Of a stretch of 38,255 nt of DNA, positions 2,835 through 11,796 are shown piece by piece; the stretch's first letter is position 1; each line of letters opens with the position of its first letter. The DNA is from Gammaproteobacteria bacterium. Lineage in GTDB: Bacteria; Pseudomonadota; Gammaproteobacteria; Xanthomonadales; Xanthomonadaceae. The notes beneath the pieces were generated by a model that saw nothing but the letters and a program-made list of their open reading frames with translations, was not told the DNA's origin and searched no databases. Position numbers and translations under genes: made by a program. The stretch covers positions 1 through 38,255 of the forward strand of contig JAUIJO010000001.1 in NCBI GenBank assembly GCA_030431185.1, in the 5' to 3' direction.

Positions 2835-5690
2835 TCAGGGCATATCGGTGCCCTTCAGGCTGTGGGCGGCGGGCGGCATCATCCAGTCGGCGGACACGCC
2901 ACGCAGGCCGGTACGGGCGACCAGCGACATGCGCGCAGTCCGCGCGGACGTGGCGTCGCCTTCGTCCGGGAGCGCACCCAGCGCGCGCAACTGGACCAGT
3001 ACGTCCTGGCGCGTCTCGGCCTGGCTCGCCAGCGTGCGCAGCAGCGTGTTCGCGCCCTGGCCGTCGCCGGCCAGGCGGGCCAGCCCGGCTTCCACCAGGT
3101 CGATCCTCTGGTCGACCAGCCAGACGGGTTCGGGCAGGCTGGCGCGCGCGGCGCGGGCGAGGCGGCGCGCATCGTCGGCGTCGCCACGCGCCAGGGCCAG
3201 CTCGGCCAGCCCGGCCTGCGCCATCGCCGCCAACATGCCGTAGCCGGCCCGCTGCACCTCCGGCAGTACCTCCCGGTTGAGGCGCTCGGCCAGGTCGCGC
3301 TCGCCGGCGGCGGCCAGGAGGGGCGCGATCTCCAGCTTGAGGATCCAGCGGCCGGGCGCGGTGTCCAGCTCCGGGAGCTTGTCCAGGGCGCGATGCAGGC
3401 CGGCCAGCGCCGCCTGCGGATCACCGGTGTCCAGGTCGATCTCGGCAAGGCCGATGATGGCCACCAGCGCCAGGGCGGGGTCGGTGTCGGGGCAGCGGGC
3501 ATAGCTCGCCCGCGCCGCGGTCGGGTCGCCCATCGTGGTCTGGATCTGCCCGCTGGCGCAGGCGTAGCGATCCTTGACCGACTGCGACGGAGCGGGGAGG
3601 CCGGGATCGTCGAGCCGGGTACGACCGCGCTCGGCGGCCGCCAGCGCACGGGCATTGTGCCCCCGCATCTGGTCGATGAAGACTTCGAACAGGCGCGCCC
3701 AGGTGACCAGCTCGCCCTGCTGGTCTTCGTCGACCATGCGGGCGATCCGCTCGCCCGCCGGGGTGAAGCGCCCCTGCAGGTATTCCTCGTTGAGCAGGTC
3801 GCGTTCGATCGCCGCGGTGCTCCACGGGTCGTCCATCGATTCGGCCACGGCCATGGCCTGCATCAGCCGCTTTCGATAGCGCTCGATGTCGCCGGCGCGA
3901 TACTGCTGGAAGGCCGCGGCGCGCAACGCGCTCAACTCGAGTTGCAACTGGCCGGCGGCGCGCGCCTGCGCCAGCCATTCGTCCAGGTAGCGGTACTGCG
4001 CCTTCGGCGGCCCGAGCACCTCGCCCAGGAAGCGTGCCCGCAACGCGGAGAACGCGTCGCCGGCCTGTTCGAACTGGCGCGCGGCCGCCTCGAACGCGGC
4101 GCGGGTGTCGCGGTCGGGTTCGGTGTCGACCTGGAGTTGCGCGAGAAGCATCAGCGTGTGCCCGCGGTCGTAGGCCCATTCCTCCCCCGCGGCGGCGGCC
4201 AGCGCGTCCGCCTTGCGTGCGCTCTCCAGCGCGGCCTCGAAGTCGCCCAGCGGGGCCTGGAAGATCGCCCGGTTGAACCACTTCTGCACCTCCATCGACG
4301 CCGGCAGCGGCCGGTCCCAGATCGGCCGTTCCATGATCGCCAGCGCATCGGCGAAGCGTCCGGCGCGGCCCAGCGCGCGGGCCTGCTGCTGCGCGAACCC
4401 GGTCTGGTCGGGATAGCGTTCCGCAAGCCGGCCGTACGCGTCCGCGGCGGCGACATGATCGCTCGAGAGCGCCAGCCGTTGGGCCTGCAGCAGCGAGTCG
4501 GCCTCGCTGGACATGGGTTGCAGCAGGCGGCGTGCGGTCTCCAGGTGCTCGCGGGCTTCCGGCAAGCGGCCCAGGGTGGCCTGGGCGCGCGCGAGGTGCA
4601 GGTGGCCCAGGGCGAAACCGGGTGCCTCGCGGACCAGCGCCGCGCCGGCCTCCACGGCGTCGTTCCAGTGGTGGGCACGTCGCGCGCGCTCCAGGGCGAG
4701 GAAGCCCATCGCGGCCTCGGGCGTCGCCTGGAGCGTGGGCCAGGGCTGTGCGGGACGGGACGGATACAGGACCTCGAGGACGTTGTCCGACAGCCGGTCC
4801 ACCAGCGCCGCCATGTCCCGGGCATCGCCTTCCTGCTGCAGCCTCTGGACCTTGCCGTCCTTTTCGAACCGGGCGCGCACGAGGCGTCGCGCCGGGTCCC
4901 GCGGGGCCGGGCCCGAAAACAACAGCACAACGGTGTTGTGGGCTTGCGCGGTGGGGTCGGCGGCCAGGTGGGCCGGGCTCAGTACCGTGACGTCGGGCAG
5001 GGAGGAGAGCTTCCAGCCCAGCCACGCGTCGAGAAGCTCGAGCGTGGCGGCGTCGGCGGCGTCCCGCCCCGGGTCTTCGACCCGGATCAGCGTGACCGAC
5101 GCGGGCACGCCGGCCGTGGCGCCACCCGGACCCGGGCGCGTGGAGATCCACCACGCCAGGCCGGCGAGGAGGAGCAGGGCGGTGGCCACCAGTGCCAGGC
5201 GCACGGCGACGCGCTTCCGGGCCGGCGCGATGGGCCTGGCCTCGATGGAGGGGGCCGCGTCCGCGGCAGGCTCGCGGGCGCCTGCCCCCGCCCCGGCCGG
5301 GCGGTCCGCCGCGTCGGGGACCGCAAGGGTCTGGACGGCCTCGATGGGATGGGGCGGTTCGAACACGTAGCCCTGCTTTGAGCGCGTCCGGATCCACGCC
5401 TTGTGCTCTTCACCCAGCGCCTTGCGCAGCACGCTGATGCTCTGCGACAGGTTGGCGTCCTCGACGATGACCCCCGCCCAGACGCGGCGGAGCAGGGCTT
5501 CGCGCGTGTGGAGCTGGTGCGGCTCGGCCGCGAGCAGCATCAATACGTCGAACACGCGCTGCGGCAATTCGGTCTCGCCCCGCGCATGCGCGACGCGACG
5601 CAATGCCAGGTCCACCACGACGTCGCCGATGCGCAGGAAACGGATGCGCGGTGGCCACGACGGCAGGCTGGTCTCAGGAACTTCCGGCAT
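2835..5690 (-). CDS. ToxR/CadC-like transmembrane transcriptional regulator: N-terminal OmpR/PhoB-type winged helix, one TM, large periplasmic TPR-like domain
   Basis: N-terminus [65 protein letters not shown] is typical Trans_reg_C. A TM helix ([18 protein letters not shown]) is followed by ~750 aa of Ala/Leu-rich helical repeats. Start at M33 of the listed ORF, preceded by GGGGG. Confidence 0.85.
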
Positions 5691-5927
5691 CGAACCCCCA
5701 CTGCGTGTCAGGACAGCTGTCTCCGGCGACCGTTCCAGGCGAACCGGACCGGTGCGCATGGCGGCGCAGGCGCGGGAGCCCGGCACCGACGCGTTCCCTG
5801 ACAGTCATGGGCCCCCTTGCCCGAGCCATGACTGTGCCACCCCCCGGCGGCCCCGGCCAGTGGTGGACGCGGGCGTGGAGGTCCCGGAAGGGGGGCGATC
5901 GGCGTTCATCGCCGTGGTGGGCTTGGA

Positions 5928-6318: not shown

Positions 6319-8481
6319 ATGCGTTATGGGGTATTGGCCGCGGCCATTGCATTGACTGGCCTGGCCGGAACCGCGATCGCGGGCGAGGGCATGTGGGTAC
6401 CGCAGCAACTGCCGGAGATCGCGAAGCCCCTTCGCAAGGCGGGCCTGAAGCTCAAGCCCGAGCAATTGGCCAACCTGACGGGCGACCCGATGGGGGCGGT
6501 GGTCTCGCTGGGGGGCTGCACGGCCAGTTTCGTGTCCCCGCAAGGGCTCGTCGTCACCAACCACCACTGTGCCTACGGGGCGATCCAGCTCAACTCCACC
6601 CCCGAGAAGAACCTGATGGACGAGGGCTTCAATGCCGCGTCCCCGGCCGCGGAAGTGTCCGCGGGACCCAACGCCCGCATCTATGCGCTGGATGGCATCG
6701 AAGACGTCACCGGACGCGTCAAGGCCGTCATCGACGCCGCGCCGGACGCACTCGGCCGCACCGAGGCCCTGGAGCGGATCGAGAAGCAGCTGGTCGCGCA
6801 GTGCGAGGCCGGCGACGGCTACCGCTGCCGCCTCTACAGCTTCTCGGGCGGCAACACGTACCGCCTGTTCCGGAACCTCGAGATCAAGGACGTGCGCCTG
6901 GTCTACGCGCCGCCCAGCAGCATCGGCAACTACGGCGGCGAGGTCGACAACTGGATGTGGCCGCGCCACACCGGCGACTTCTCCTTCTACCGCGCCTATG
7001 TCGGCAGGGACGGCAAGCCGGCCGCGTACGCCGAGGACAACGTGCCGTACCAGCCCAGGCACTGGCTGAAGATCGCCAGCCGCCCGCTGGAAGCGGACGA
7101 TTTCGTGATGGTCGCCGGCTACCCCGGGCGCACCGCGCGATATGCGCTGGCCGAGGAGTTCGACGAGACCGCCAACTGGGCGTACCCGACCGTCGGCGCG
7201 CACTACAAGCGCCTCGTCGCGATGGTCGAGGCGGCGGGCAGGCAGGATCCGGCGATCGCCGTGAAGTACGCGAGCACCATCCGCGGCTGGCAGAACGCGA
7301 TGAAGAACTACGACGGCCAGCTGGAAGGGTTCCGCCGCATCGACGCCGCCGCGACCAAGCACGCCGACGAGGCCGCGGTGCTGGCGTGGCTCCGCAAGCA
7401 GGGCGAGGCGGGCAAGGCGGCCCTGGACGCCCACGCGACGCTGGTGGCGCTGGACGAGCAGGCGCGCGCCCATCGCGACCGCGACCTCGTGCTGGGGCAA
7501 CTGCGTCGTACCGGGGTGATCGGGGCGGCCGTGCAGTTGTATCGCCTGTCGATCGAGGGCGCCAAGCCCGACGCCGAGCGCGAGCAGGGCTACCAGGAGC
7601 GCGACCTGCCGGGCTTCGAGGGCGGGATGCGGCAGATGGAACGCCGCTACGACCCGAAGATGGACCGCCAGCTGCAGGAGTACTGGTTGCGCGAGTACGT
7701 GAAGCTGCCCGCCGACCAGCACGTGGAGGCGCTCGACGCCTGGCTCGGAGGCAATGACTACGAGGCGATCGACAAGGCCCTGGACCGCCTGGCGAAGACC
7801 AACCTGGGCATCACCGAATACCGCCTGGGCCTGATGACGACGGATCGCGCGGACTTCGAGGCGAGCAAGGATCCGGCGATCAAGCTCGCGGTCGCGATCA
7901 TGCCGACCCTGCTGGCCCTGGAGAAGGAAGGCAAGGTGCGTGCCGGCGACGCCGTGCTGGCCCGCCCCGTCTACCTGCAGGCGGTCGCGGACTACAAGGA
8001 GAGCCAGGGCGAGTTCGTCTATCCGGATGCCAACTCCTCGCTGCGCATCACCTTCGGCCATGTCATGGGCTACACCAAGGTGGACGGCAGCAAGCAGGCG
8101 CCGTTCACCCGCCTGGAGGAAGTCGCCGCCAAGGCCACCGGCGAGGCGCCCTTCGACGCGCCCCGGGCCCTGCTCGACGCCATTGCGGCGAAGAACTACG
8201 GCGGACTGCAGGACAAGGAGCTGGGCACCGTGCCGGTCAACTTCCTGTCCGACCTGGACATCACCGGTGGCAATTCGGGTTCGCCGGTCATGGACGCGCG
8301 TGGCGAGCTGGTCGGCCTGGCGTTCGATGGCAACTGGGAGTCGGTGAGCAGCAACTGGGTGTTCGATCCCACCATGACCCGGATGATCGCGGTCGACCAG
8401 CGCTACATGCGCTGGATCATGCAGGAAGTCTTCCCCGCACCGCAGATCCTCGCCGAGCTCGGTGTGCCCGAAAAGGACTGA
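6319..8481 (+). CDS. S46 family dipeptidyl peptidase (DPP7/DAP BII-like), exported
   Basis: Signal peptide, then EGMW.P, GGCTASFVS..GLVVTNHHCA (catalytic His), DNWMWPRHTGDF and DITGGNSGSPV (catalytic Ser). SD AAGGAG precedes ATG 6319, and -10 TACACT lies at 6283-6288. Confidence 0.95.
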   Translation: MRYGVLAAAIALTGLAGTAIAGEGMWVPQQLPEIAKPLRKAGLKLKPEQLANLTGDPMGAVVSLGGCTASFVSPQGLVVTNHHCAYGAIQLNSTPEKNLMDEGFNAASPAAEVSAGPNARIYALDGIEDVTGRVKAVIDAAPDALGRTEALERIEKQLVAQCEAGDGYRCRLYSFSGGNTYRLFRNLEIKDVRLVYAPPSSIGNYGGEVDNWMWPRHTGDFSFYRAYVGRDGKPAAYAEDNVPYQPRHWLKIASRPLEADDFVMVAGYPGRTARYALAEEFDETANWAYPTVGAHYKRLVAMVEAAGRQDPAIAVKYASTIRGWQNAMKNYDGQLEGFRRIDAAATKHADEAAVLAWLRKQGEAGKAALDAHATLVALDEQARAHRDRDLVLGQLRRTGVIGAAVQLYRLSIEGAKPDAEREQGYQERDLPGFEGGMRQMERRYDPKMDRQLQEYWLREYVKLPADQHVEALDAWLGGNDYEAIDKALDRLAKTNLGITEYRLGLMTTDRADFEASKDPAIKLAVAIMPTLLALEKEGKVRAGDAVLARPVYLQAVADYKESQGEFVYPDANSSLRITFGHVMGYTKVDGSKQAPFTRLEEVAAKATGEAPFDAPRALLDAIAAKNYGGLQDKELGTVPVNFLSDLDITGGNSGSPVMDARGELVGLAFDGNWESVSSNWVFDPTMTRMIAVDQRYMRWIMQEVFPAPQILAELGVPEKD

Positions 8482-8506
8482 GTAAGCCGGTCAGGCGAGC
8501 CACGCG

Positions 8507-8529
8507 ACGGGCCGGCATTGCCGGCCCGT
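8507..8529. terminator. hairpin, probable terminator after the S46 peptidase
   Basis: ACGGGCCGGC-ATT-GCCGGCCCGT perfect 10-bp stem 25 nt after the stop; the U-tract is weak. Confidence 0.55.
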
Positions 8530-8633
8530 TCCGGTTGCGGGCGTCGTCCAGGCGGGCATCAGGCGACGCGCGGCGGAGTGGTCGCAGCGCGCGGGGACAG
8601 CGGGCCCGGAAGGCAGGGCCGGGATGGTCGCGT

Positions 8634-8798
8634 TCAGGAAAGGCGGAGGTGGAACCGGTCGGCGGCGCCGCTCAGCGCACGCCGGCACAGGCGCAGCATG
8701 GCCCGGGCCAGGCGCGCCGCACCGTAGCCGAGCAGCAGCAGGCCCGAGGCCAGGCACAGCAACACCGGGCTGTTCGACAGCATGGAGTCCAGGATCAT
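8634..8798 (-). CDS. small single-TM membrane protein (54 aa), hypothetical
   Basis: MILDSMLSNSPVLLCLASGLLLLGYGAARLARAMLRLCRR...: a hydrophobic helix followed by a basic tail. SD-like GAAGGA upstream; it fills an otherwise empty gap. Confidence 0.5.
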   Translation of the reverse strand: MILDSMLSNSPVLLCLASGLLLLGYGAARLARAMLRLCRRALSGAADRFHLRLS

Positions 8799-8894
8799 GG
8801 CCGCACGTCCTTCATGCACCGAGCTTACGCTTCCCGGCGCTGGCGCGCATCCCGGGGCAGGGTGAACGCGTGCCGGTGGTTTCCCCGGTAACCG

Positions 8895-8922
8895 TTGCGC
8901 GCCCCGGGAACTCTGCTAGTCT
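8895..8922 (+). promoter_or_regulatory. putative sigma70 promoter of serA operon
   Basis: TTGCGC-16 nt-TAGTCT with an extended -10 TG (TGCTAGTCT), implying a TSS near 8929. Confidence 0.5.
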
Positions 8923-8928
8923 TGCCGG

Positions 8929-9092
8929 CATCGCGGATTCCCATGCCAGCCGGCCCCGTCTCCCGATCAGTGGTAGTGACATCCGACCTGCAGCGTGTCG
9001 CGGGTCCACCCGCACCGACCGGTGCGGCGTCTCCATCCGAAGTGCCGGCTGCATGCGAACTCCGCGGGATTCCCTACCCACTGGAGCATGCA
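8929..9092 (+). promoter_or_regulatory. structured 5' leader of serA, candidate cis-regulatory RNA
   Basis: 8932-8954 pairs extensively with 9044-9066, with an internal hairpin at 9010-9027. Alternatively, 9050-9063 pairs with the SD region 9083-9092. Confidence 0.5.
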
Positions 9093-10658
9093 ATGAAAGT
9101 CCTGGCCTGCGATGGCATCCATGAAGACGGCCTGATCCTGTTCCGCGACGCGGGATGGGAGGTCGAAGTCGCCCCCGAACCGATCAAGGACCCCGACGCG
9201 CTGGCCGACAAGCTCGCGGATTTCGACGCGATCCTGGTCCGCTCGTCCACCAAGGTGCCGGCCACGGCGCTTGCGCGGGCCGACAAGCTGAAGGTGATCG
9301 GTCGCGCCGGCGCCGGCGTCGACACCATCGACGTGGACGCGGCGACCGCCCGCGGCATCGCGGTGATGAACGCCCCCGACGGCAACACCCTGGCCGCGGC
9401 CGAGCACGCGATCTCCCTGTTGTTCGCGCTGGCGCGCCACATCCCGCGCGCCGACGCGGGCATGAAGGCGGGCGGCTGGCCGAAGGCCGGCCTGACCGGC
9501 TTCGAGCTCGAGGGCAAGAAGCTCGGCGTCATCGGCCTGGGGCGCATCGGCAGCACCGTGGCGCGCAAGGCCGCCGGCATCGGCATGGAAGTCGCCGCGC
9601 ACGATCCCTTCCTGCCGGCCGCCGCGGCCGCCAAGGGCAGCGTGAAGCTCAAGAGCCTGGACGAGCTGCTGGCCTGGGCCGACATCATCACCCTGCACAT
9701 CCCGCGCACCAAGGAAACCACCAACCTGCTGTCGGAAGCGCGCATGCGCTCGATGAAGAAGGGGGCCTACCTGATCAACGCCGCGCGCGGCGGCCTGGTC
9801 GACGAGTCCGCGCTGATCCAGTTGCTCGACGAAGACCACCTGGCCGGCGCCGCGCTGGACACCTTCGTCACCGAGCCGCTGCAGGCCGAGTCGCCGCTTC
9901 GCGGCCATCCGAAGCTGATCCTGACCCCGCACCTGGGCGCGTCGACCAGCGAGGCGCAGCAGGCGGTCAGCACGATCCTGGCGCGCCAGATCATCGATTT
10001 CGTCGCCACCGGCGCGGTCGCCGGTTGCGTCAACCTGCCGCCGCTCACCGCCGAGGCCGCGCGCGAAGTCGGGCCGTGGATGCCGCTGATGTCCTCGCTC
10101 GGGCGCCTGGCCTCGCGCCTGGTCCCGGCGCCGACGCGCCTGCACATCACCTATGCCGGCCGCACCGAGGCCCTCGATACCCGGCCGCTGACCCGTCTGC
10201 TGGTCGCCGCGCTGATGGGCACCGCCTCAGGCCGTGTCACCCCGGTGAACGCCCTGCACGAGGCGGCGGCGCGCGGACTGACCGTGGCCGAGACGGTCGG
10301 GGGCGACAGCGACGGCTTCGATCGCCTGCTCCGCCTGCGCATCGAGAGCGAGGAGCGGACCCGCGAGGTCGAGGCCACGCTGCATCGCGGGCCGCGCGTG
10401 GTGCGCCTGGACGGCGTCGAGATCGAGTTCGATCCCGCTGCCCCGGTGTTGCTGATGCGCAATGAGGATCGTCCCGGCATGATCGGCACCGTCGGCTCCA
10501 AGCTGGGTGCGGCGGGCGTGAACATCGTCAATTTCGCCCTGGGCGCCGCCGGCGATGGCCAGGCGCGCGCGGCGATCACCGTCGACCGGGCCGTGACCGA
10601 GGACGAACTCGCGGCGCTGGCCGCCGTCCCCGGCATCCTGTCGCTGAGGCAGGTCTGA
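9093..10658 (+). CDS. serA: D-3-phosphoglycerate dehydrogenase, long (type I, ASB+ACT) form
   Basis: MKVLACD start with SD GGAG; GRAGAGVDTID, GLGRIG, NAARGGLVDE and TPHLGAST motifs; ~200-aa C-terminal extension ending in an ACT-like NEDRPGMIGTVGSKLG..GVNI. 521 aa. Confidence 0.93.
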   Translation: MKVLACDGIHEDGLILFRDAGWEVEVAPEPIKDPDALADKLADFDAILVRSSTKVPATALARADKLKVIGRAGAGVDTIDVDAATARGIAVMNAPDGNTLAAAEHAISLLFALARHIPRADAGMKAGGWPKAGLTGFELEGKKLGVIGLGRIGSTVARKAAGIGMEVAAHDPFLPAAAAAKGSVKLKSLDELLAWADIITLHIPRTKETTNLLSEARMRSMKKGAYLINAARGGLVDESALIQLLDEDHLAGAALDTFVTEPLQAESPLRGHPKLILTPHLGASTSEAQQAVSTILARQIIDFVATGAVAGCVNLPPLTAEAAREVGPWMPLMSSLGRLASRLVPAPTRLHITYAGRTEALDTRPLTRLLVAALMGTASGRVTPVNALHEAAARGLTVAETVGGDSDGFDRLLRLRIESEERTREVEATLHRGPRVVRLDGVEIEFDPAAPVLLMRNEDRPGMIGTVGSKLGAAGVNIVNFALGAAGDGQARAAITVDRAVTEDELAALAAVPGILSLRQV

Positions 10659-11305
10659 TGCGCGTCCTGCTCGCCCGCCACGGGGAGACGCCGTGGAACG
10701 CCGAAGGCCGCTACCAGGGCCAGGAGGACATTCCCCTGTCGCCGGTCGGCGAAGCGCAGGCCCGGGCGCTGGGCCAGCGCCTGCAAGATGCCGGGATCAC
10801 CCGCGCCGTGGCCTCGCCGCTGGCGCGCGCGCGCCGTACGGCGCAACTCGCGCTCGACGCACGCGCCGACATGCTCGAGACGGACCCGGGGCTGATGGAG
10901 ATCGGCCACGGCGACTGGGAAGGCCTGCTCGCCAGCGAGATCCACGCGCGCGATCCGCAGCGCCTCAAGGCCTGGCGCGAGGCGCCCGACACCGTGCTGA
11001 TGCCGGGGCAGGGCGGCGAGTCGCTGCAACAGGTGTTCGACCGTGCATGGCCGGCGCTGCGGCGGGCCGGGGACGGACTGGGCCCCGACGACACGTTGCT
11101 GGTGGTCGCGCACGATGCCGTCAACCGGGTGATCCTGTGCCACCTGCTCGGCATCCCCTTCAATCGACTGTGGACCTTCCGCCAGGCACCGACCACGCTC
11201 AACCTGCTGGAGGGCGACAGCGTCGAGGCGCTCGATATCGTGCGCCTGAACGACTGCAGCCACCACACCGCGCTGTTCGGGGAAGCGGTGCACCGGGCGC
11301 TCTGA
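10658..11305 (+). CDS. histidine phosphatase family protein, probable metal-independent phosphoserine phosphatase
   Basis: RHGET.WN..GRYQG, SPLARA, EIGHGDWEG, VAHDAVNR and C-terminal LNDCSHH. Its start overlaps the serA stop (TGATG). Confidence 0.85.
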   Translation: MRVLLARHGETPWNAEGRYQGQEDIPLSPVGEAQARALGQRLQDAGITRAVASPLARARRTAQLALDARADMLETDPGLMEIGHGDWEGLLASEIHARDPQRLKAWREAPDTVLMPGQGGESLQQVFDRAWPALRRAGDGLGPDDTLLVVAHDAVNRVILCHLLGIPFNRLWTFRQAPTTLNLLEGDSVEALDIVRLNDCSHHTALFGEAVHRAL

Positions 11306-11320
11306 TCGCCCCGCCGGAAT

Positions 11321-11350
11321 GCGGAAGCCACGCCGGCGCGTGGCTTCCGC
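11321..11350. terminator. hairpin between convergent genes (bidirectional terminator candidate)
   Basis: GCGGAAGCCACG-CCGGCG-CGTGGCTTCCGC perfect 12-bp stem. Confidence 0.65.
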
Positions 11351-11360
11351 GGCCGCCGAC

Positions 11361-11579
11361 TTACGGCAGGTTGCAGAACAGGTGGCCGTTGGCCACCGCA
11401 TTCGGGGTCCGCGTGCCGCTGTAGCTGAAGGCGCCGTCGCAGCTCACCGAGTAGGTGCCGACCACGTTGCCGTCGGCGTCCAGGTAGACGCCGAGTTCGC
11501 CATTCCTCGGTTTCGCCATGGCCACGCCCGCCGCGATGGCGAGAACGAGTCCGAGTCCGAGCATCACTTTCATACGCAT
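11361..11579 (-). CDS. small secreted protein (72 aa), DUF6289-like
   Basis: Signal peptide MRMKVMLGLGLVLAIAAGVAMA, then mature YLDADGNVVGTYSVSCDG...SGTRT...C with two Cys. Strong SD AAGGAG. Confidence 0.75.
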   Translation of the reverse strand: MRMKVMLGLGLVLAIAAGVAMAKPRNGELGVYLDADGNVVGTYSVSCDGAFSYSGTRTPNAVANGHLFCNLP

Positions 11580-11796
11580 GGCATTCGCTCCTTGTTGGGA
11601 ATTGCGTGGATATGCGGGTGTCGGCAGGCCGACCATGGATTCTTGGCCCGGTACGCCCGCGCGTGCGTCAACACCGGGTGACGTGGGTGGGTTTTCCGCA
11701 CTGCGATTCTCGATGTGTGCGGCATCGTCCATAATTCCCGTGAACCCGGTGCGATCCGCACTGCGAACTGCACCCCTGTCATTCATGGAGTTGAAC

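Follow-up and report, generated by a model that had tools for sequence, protein, structure and literature searches.

The serA locus and its leader

The window analysed, i.e., the whole 38,255-nt stretch of DNA, carries on its forward strand a serA gene, which is followed by a gene of the histidine-phosphatase family and preceded by a leader with the following features:

8895..8922, +, predicted sigma70-type promoter (-35 TTGCGC, 8895-8900; -10 TAGTCT, 8917-8922)
8930..8967, +, hairpin X, 38 nt, candidate aptamer, conserved as a module in 107 of 113 orthologous leaders
8930-8937/8961-8967, +, stem P1 of X
8938-8944 and 8955-8960, +, internal loop of X, 7 by 6, C-rich
8945-8947/8952-8954, +, stem P2 of X
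8932..8954, +, 5′ arm of helix A, which is also the 5′ half of X
8935..8945, +, invariant GGA-N5-AUG within X, ribosome-binding-site-like, frame not conserved
8968..9043, +, variable spacer made up of independent hairpins (distance between upstream AUG and start codon, 29-287 nt, median 146)
9044..9066, +, switch arm, predicted to pair with the 5′ arm (state A) or with the Shine-Dalgarno (SD) and its spacer (state B)
9083..9095, +, SD GGAG (9083-9086), then spacer and serA start codon
9093-9095, +, serA start codon ATG, read from the sequence
9093..10658, +, serA, long-type D-3-phosphoglycerate dehydrogenase with ASB and ACT domains, 521 aa
10658..11305, +, histidine-phosphatase family gene that overlaps the serA stop codon (PspA-like match, E 5.6e-36, under the family cut-off)

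The serA product scored 523.8 bits against TIGR01327 (cut-off, 454), and its best PDB match was 3ddn/1ygy; the ASB and ACT assignment was taken from the Pfam domains of close relatives. Between the phosphatase gene and the following, folC-like gene, the opposite strand carries a short ORF (about 11319-11700 of the window) whose start resembles a signal peptide, so that the purine and folate genes may be transcribed apart from serA. A 983-aa protein encoded at 2835-5786 (- strand), with an apparent winged-helix DNA-binding domain, a transmembrane segment and a repeat region, is presumably a CadC-like regulator. The phosphatase gene followed serA in 39 of the 40 loci checked, and it is likely to encode a phosphoserine phosphatase. 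Diverged SerB enzymes of Lysobacter and Xanthomonas are tabulated in the available part of PMC13759103; no link between them and the gene at 10658..11305 was found there, a search of the supplement included.

The initial annotation of this DNA had placed the end of a promoter at 8922. A consensus scan gave no matches and did not pick up the predicted promoter, in which 16 nt separate TTGCGC from TAGTCT, but the position of a TAnnnT element, 10-17 nt ahead of the invariant GGA of the motif, was kept in 105 of 107 relatives (a count without a shuffled control). Transcription probably starts near 8929-8930, and X begins just downstream of the predicted promoter. No intrinsic terminator was found in 8400-9300.

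Hairpin X is conserved ahead of long-type serA

A search with the SerA protein (E up to 1e-100) matched 117 of 300 genomes of the family, three unpublished ones included. Long-type SerA was present in 28 of the 64 genera, the other genera having a short type, and 113 upstream regions were examined, leaving out the three unpublished genomes, a gene that starts right at the end of its contig and a duplicated copy. The core of X, GGAYUCCCAUGC - short hairpin - GCCCCGUYUCC, lay ahead of serA in 107 of these 113 long-type orthologues; 18 core positions were identical in all 107, and the flanks and the spacer were variable. Both loop strands of X contain invariant single strands, UCCC and CCC, and the 5′ strand holds an invariant UCC, a serine codon. 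RNAalifold returned the same fold, differing in a single P1 pair and an additional pair in the loop. Among the six leaders that did not carry the core, one had it cut by a contig end, and the other five (L228, L231, L241, L243 and L245), all from one genus, combine a long SerA with a short plain leader that has no motif; they provide a natural control, and the X model was not found elsewhere in their genomes. At the other extreme, two natural minimal leaders, L230:61-106 (-) and L238:61-106 (-), have X abutting the serA start, with no GGAG downstream. Since these two genomes have lost everything from X to the start codon, X is the conserved unit.

All the sequence strings listed in the initial annotation were found where it had placed them, but part of what it had pointed out is private to this genome and its close kin. 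The two interior hairpins exist, but hairpin 1 recurred in only 3 and hairpin 2 in only 4 of the 107 leaders, all close relatives. Likewise, the duplicated motifs exist but are not conserved: CATCCGA was doubled in 1 and CGTYTCC in 19 of the 107 leaders. Being confined to close relatives, the hairpins and the duplications find no support as parts of the switch.

A covariance model of X gave one strong match in the genome of origin, and neither this model nor blast revealed further copies there. The model matched 59 of 151 family genomes (one unpublished genome is in this tally), all of which have a long SerA except one, in which the match lies at a contig end. No credible match was obtained in 132 genomes from other families of the order, where the weak matches lay inside coding sequence or had no 3′ half, nor at short-type serA or alphaproteobacterial serA and serC loci. 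In a pattern scan of GTDB (45 of 64 parts scanned), serA was downstream of 78 of 119 matches, and the other 41 were, among those listed, short-flank serA-type leaders or sequences without the upstream GGA. In the metagenomes, 61 of 92 pattern matches preceded a long-type serA. Each of the 65 matches that the model scored above 34 bits was linked to serA or cut by a contig end; six viral matches were chance-like. Both pattern scans fix part of the motif, and they were excluded from the conservation counts. All strong matches with sufficient flank precede serA, and X was not found ahead of any other gene in the GTDB pattern, metagenome or model scans. Among the marks of a riboswitch candidate given in the available text of PMC7266159 is that the RNA consistently precedes, on the same strand, genes with a shared metabolic theme, and X does so. 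In one genome with 6% contamination, two equal-scoring serA copies lie on separate contigs (G004:C14 and G004:C32), possibly an assembly duplicate.

Covariation in X

The covariation alignment comprised 51 distinct cores, unfitted, 47 of them protein-found and 4 pattern-found. With the structure of X, 92.7% of the cells were paired, versus 28-51% when the partners were slid. Two-sided changes were seen in 5 of the 10 pairs, a count that 55 of 500 shuffles reached, and the covariation score was reached by 0 of 500. The third pair of P2 was C-G, U-A or G-C, was paired in 51 of 51 rows and was never broken; in the 107 rows its three states were split 87/12/8 on each side. In addition, the P1 flank changed in concert from one subfamily to another. 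The GGA/UCC pairs showed 7 changes, each of which replaced G-C by G-U on the + strand, the kind of change that an RNA should show. When the states were placed on a quick SerA tree (85 of 121 SerA fragments), the third pair of P2 needed 4 changes, with a minimum of 2, and on the starred branches only 1 change was forced per label. Hence, the independent covariation events are few (2-4 for P2), and kin are not independent. Conserved loop nucleotides within a covarying structure, a further mark of a riboswitch candidate in the available text of PMC7266159, are present in X with this small number of events. The homologous leaders, which the initial annotation had named as the place to look for covariation, revealed it in both stems of X.

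Predicted competition of X with helix A, and its coupling to the ribosome-binding site

Helix A (8932-8954/9044-9066) had been drawn in the initial annotation with about 21 bp; it has 21 bp, most of them at a pairing probability of 0.94-1.0. The duplex of the 5′ arm with the rest of the leader was computed at -37.2 kcal/mol, a value that only 3 of 1000 dinucleotide shuffles reached, and the folding energy of the whole leader gave no signal (z -0.43). State B, as drawn there, involves the pairs 9050-55/9087-92 plus 9061-63/9083-85, and it proved feasible: its energy of -69.4 is 3.1 kcal/mol higher than that of the free ensemble (-72.5). Helix A and X are predicted to be mutually exclusive, since both use bases 8932-8954. 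The annotation had missed X, and it is the competition of X with A that explains how the switch could be thrown; its proposal of an undescribed two-state element controlling serA translation is otherwise in line with the conservation and with the predicted folds.

The nascent 5′ prefix is predicted to fold as X, with P1 formed in 101 and P2 in 106 of the 107 leaders. In the full leaders, a long-range pairing of 10 bp or more dominated in 94 of 107, and X lay a median of 5.1 kcal/mol above the preferred fold, a gap that a ligand could bridge, although in some relatives it reaches 10-19 kcal/mol. In the leader of the window, the probability of P1 was 0.83 at 8968 and 0.06-0.45 from 8975 to 9043, other folds outcompeting X in the longer prefixes. 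The spacer at 8968..9043 likely serves as a transcription delay before the 3′ arm emerges.

When X was forced, the computed median cost of opening the ribosome-binding site rose from 6.5 to 12.5 kcal/mol; the increase was above 1 kcal/mol in 95 of the 107 leaders, and in 1 the cost fell. In a random sample of 40 real leaders with lengths of 100-215 nt, the cost rose by a median of 5.6 kcal/mol versus 0.0 in 320 shuffled-middle controls, and the rise exceeded 3 kcal/mol in 85% of the real and 5% of the shuffled cases. Furthermore, within the main subfamily (65 distinct combinations, in which kin are not independent), the pairing of the arm with its cognate SD and spacer was better, at -11.55 versus -10.52 for permuted partners, with 0 of 10000 permutations as good. 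Under a looser test, state B came out weakly: a median 0.40 of non-cognate sites did as well, and z was below -2 in 12 of 105 leaders. Helix A itself failed to reach z below -2 against shuffles in 35 of 105, most of the divergent subfamilies among them. An expression platform coupled to the conserved structure, the third mark of a riboswitch candidate in the available text of PMC7266159, is therefore found by computation, more weakly in the looser test.

The clearest case of competition between A and B is L226:59-222 (-), in which the serA ribosome-binding site is a near letter-for-letter copy of the 5′ arm of the motif, so that one arm pairs with either. The Silanimonas-type leaders (L019, L232, L233, L236, L237 and L249) have a fixed 200 nt from the upstream AUG to the start and extra hairpins in common, which suggests a more elaborate conserved platform, and another subfamily (L200, L205, L214, L220, L224 and L225) has leaders of about 280 nt.

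The AUG within X

The ATG at 8943, which the initial annotation had noted as an in-frame upstream start, is indeed in frame with serA here, 50 codons upstream, and the GGA and AUG stand at ribosome-binding-site spacing in 107 of 107 leaders, so that, as judged from the letters, the upstream start codon with a putative ribosome-binding site, as in a leader-peptide attenuator, is present throughout. Its frame relative to serA, however, is scattered 26/38/43 among the 107, and the fates of the upstream frame are diverse: 41 run out of frame into serA, 29 meet an early stop, 22 abut serA and 15 are open fusions. The peptide is altered by 1-nt insertions in the P2 loop and differs between subfamilies, and in 29 of 107 no serine occurs in the first 10 codons. 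The scatter of frames, the 15 fusions and the shifting peptide mean that this AUG is neither the start of SerA nor that of a classical leader peptide. We ruled out that 8943 is the true SerA start or encodes an N-terminal extension, which the initial annotation had allowed for, and a conserved leader peptide was ruled out in the absence of any conserved peptide, frame, length or regulatory codons. Stalling at serine codons was also rejected, for its polarity: a ribosome stalled at a serine codon would free the arm, so that serA would be off under starvation, which is the wrong way round.

A model for the switch, and what might trigger it

The leader very probably belongs to a real, apparently undescribed class of cis-regulatory RNA, which on the folding computations would work as a translational OFF switch. 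In our model, X would be the first to fold, with about 75 nt still to be transcribed until the 3′ arm appears. With no signal, the arm would invade X to form the more stable helix A, leaving the SD open (ON). A signal bound at the invariant internal loop would make X persist, and the freed arm would then pair over the SD and spacer to give state B (OFF). In vivo, this OFF polarity would fit end-product feedback.

As to the trigger, binding of a small molecule comes close to an even call in our estimate. The complete reading that we tentatively adopt, at about the same strength, is that the leader of the serA-phosphatase operon is a predicted translational OFF switch in which X is the aptamer of a riboswitch that senses serine or a metabolite derived from it. 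Which molecule this would be is a further step, and the ligand cannot be triangulated since X has one gene context only. Direct binding of L-serine, which would make X the first serine riboswitch, with a pyrimidine-rich pocket, is doubtful in our view. Pyrimidine-rich loops are unusual for aptamers, and the invariant internal loop of X is pyrimidine-rich and includes the ribosome-binding-site-like GGA-N5-AUG. According to the available text of PMC1273637, serine did not bind the analogous serC RNA.

This GGA-N5-AUG is what makes the translation machinery a rival trigger to be taken seriously, if a less probable one. A ribosome or initiation complex sitting on it would block A and let B form, so that serA would be off when initiation is efficient, e.g., with an ample supply of formyl-methionyl-tRNA, which draws on one-carbon units derived from serine. 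The invariance of both elements at the proper spacing speaks for this, as do codon 5 of the upstream frame, which is CCC in 106 of 107 leaders of both frame types, and the many chance metagenome matches to the 5′ half of the motif that, by eye, resemble ordinary gene starts. In both minimal leaders, moreover, an 8-codon upstream frame stops 2 nt ahead of the serA start; compared with three relatives that have an 8-codon frame, this stop has stayed in frame through a +1/-1 pair of indels. The scattered frames and their varied outcomes, the subfamily-dependent peptide, the many leaders with no early serine codon and the wrong polarity of stalling all weigh against this trigger, which accounts neither for the invariance of the 3′ loop strand nor for the covariation of P2.

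Somewhat less probable still, though likewise a rival to be taken seriously, is that an RNA-binding protein clamps X, either SerA through its serine-binding ACT domain or another regulator. A small hairpin with a sequence-invariant loop would suit a protein, and a protein was proposed for the analogous serC element in the available text of PMC1273637. X also co-occurs strictly with one isolated SerA clade, that of the long-type enzymes of the family, which share 74-100% identity with each other and 47% or less with full-length relatives outside; no donor lineage for this type was found. No candidate regulator was identified, however, and the SerA of the five motif-less genomes is about as close to the query as other members are (78-79%).

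We regard as improbable that the C-rich loop strands dock a trans-acting RNA (an sRNA, or a tRNA in a T-box-like manner) or that the leader is released as an sRNA: the invariant UCCC and CCC strands and the UCC would invite such pairing, but the loop is held in a compact fold by covarying stems, Rfam gave no T-box match, and no intrinsic terminator was found in the region. Very improbable, finally, is that the block is a DNA operator with incidental RNA folds, for, although it forms an imperfect dyad directly after the -10 box, the G-U type changes on the + strand, a 1-nt spacing change between the conserved halves, the single strong copy per genome and a coupling to the ribosome-binding site far above controls all argue against it.

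The motif has a clear predicted ON/OFF logic and more than 100 natural examples, along with minimal forms and losses that arose in nature, and it is available in culturable strains such as Lysobacter enzymogenes. If X binds L-serine directly, it would be one of the smallest amino-acid-sensing RNAs; if the ribosome or SerA throws the switch, this would still be an undescribed control of serine synthesis.

Comparison with known RNAs

We know of no validated serine riboswitch, and a full-text literature search for one returned none, its sole match concerning a T-box. No prior description of the Lysobacteraceae serA leader was found in the literature searched, a body outside which most subscription papers lie, and the main text of PMC11109978 has no mention of serA, serine or Lysobacter. 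Rfam 15 gave no match in the leader region (8000-10000 of the window, E up to 10) or in 10 relatives (E up to 5), and this holds for the glycine, ZTP, SAM, THF and other riboswitch models, in agreement with the initial annotation, which had recognised no glycine, SAM-I or ZTP consensus.

Leader-peptide attenuators of the trpL and speFL type likewise place an upstream AUG with an SD-like sequence inside competing helices, but the serA leader has no conserved peptide, frame, length, regulatory codons or terminator. T-boxes sense uncharged tRNA and have a long Stem I and an antiterminator bulge, neither of which is matched here; the conserved module is only 38 nt, there is no T-box match in Rfam, and the invariant loop UCC is left unexplained. 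The likeness to the T-box that controls serA in Paenibacillus polymyxa, as given in the available part of PMC8002221, is that of an RNA leader controlling serine biosynthesis.

Closer in layout are translational OFF riboswitches with small stem / internal-loop / stem aptamers, such as the xanthine-binding NMT1 type. The predicted switch shares with them the aptamer-first order, an anti-aptamer strand that doubles as anti-SD and the invariant loop nucleotides; it differs in having no sequence or model match in Rfam 15, in its pyrimidine-rich loop and in that the ligand of X is putative.

The nearest counterpart, and the sole comparable candidate, is the serC leader (RF00517), an orphan riboswitch candidate whose ligand is unknown according to the available text of PMC1273637 and PMC7266159, the latter a 2020 review in which it is still an orphan. 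Both are short RNAs right after the promoter of serine-biosynthesis genes, with predicted translational control through a hidden ribosome-binding site and an unpaired CCCA run, as far as the available text of these sources goes. We compared RF00517 and five real elements with the serA leader, the revised serC model (Greenlee et al. 2018) being separate from this comparison. RF00517 was not found in the leader (its best score in the genome of origin was 16 bits, elsewhere, against a gathering cut-off of 35 bits), nor was the serC layout of two adjacent hairpins, with the SD in the last and the start codon within 11 nt; the covariance model of X, in turn, gave no score on serC elements. In the five elements inspected, CCCAAC forms a hairpin loop and the SD lies in the adjacent hairpin, whereas in the serA leader the C-rich strands form an internal loop and the switch arm is 75 nt or more away. 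The CCCAAC hairpin of the real serC elements (L153-L157, about 1500-1553) is apparently enclosed by an additional, outer stem, and the 3′ strand of this stem adjoins the SD hairpin, which hints at a two-state layout. The serC element belongs to alphaproteobacterial serC-serA, and the new one to Lysobacteraceae serA-phosphatase. Given the same pathway and promoter-proximal position and the different fold, the serA leader would work like the serC leader without being a member of its class, so that the motif may provide a second, structurally distinct handle on the sensing of serine status by RNA.
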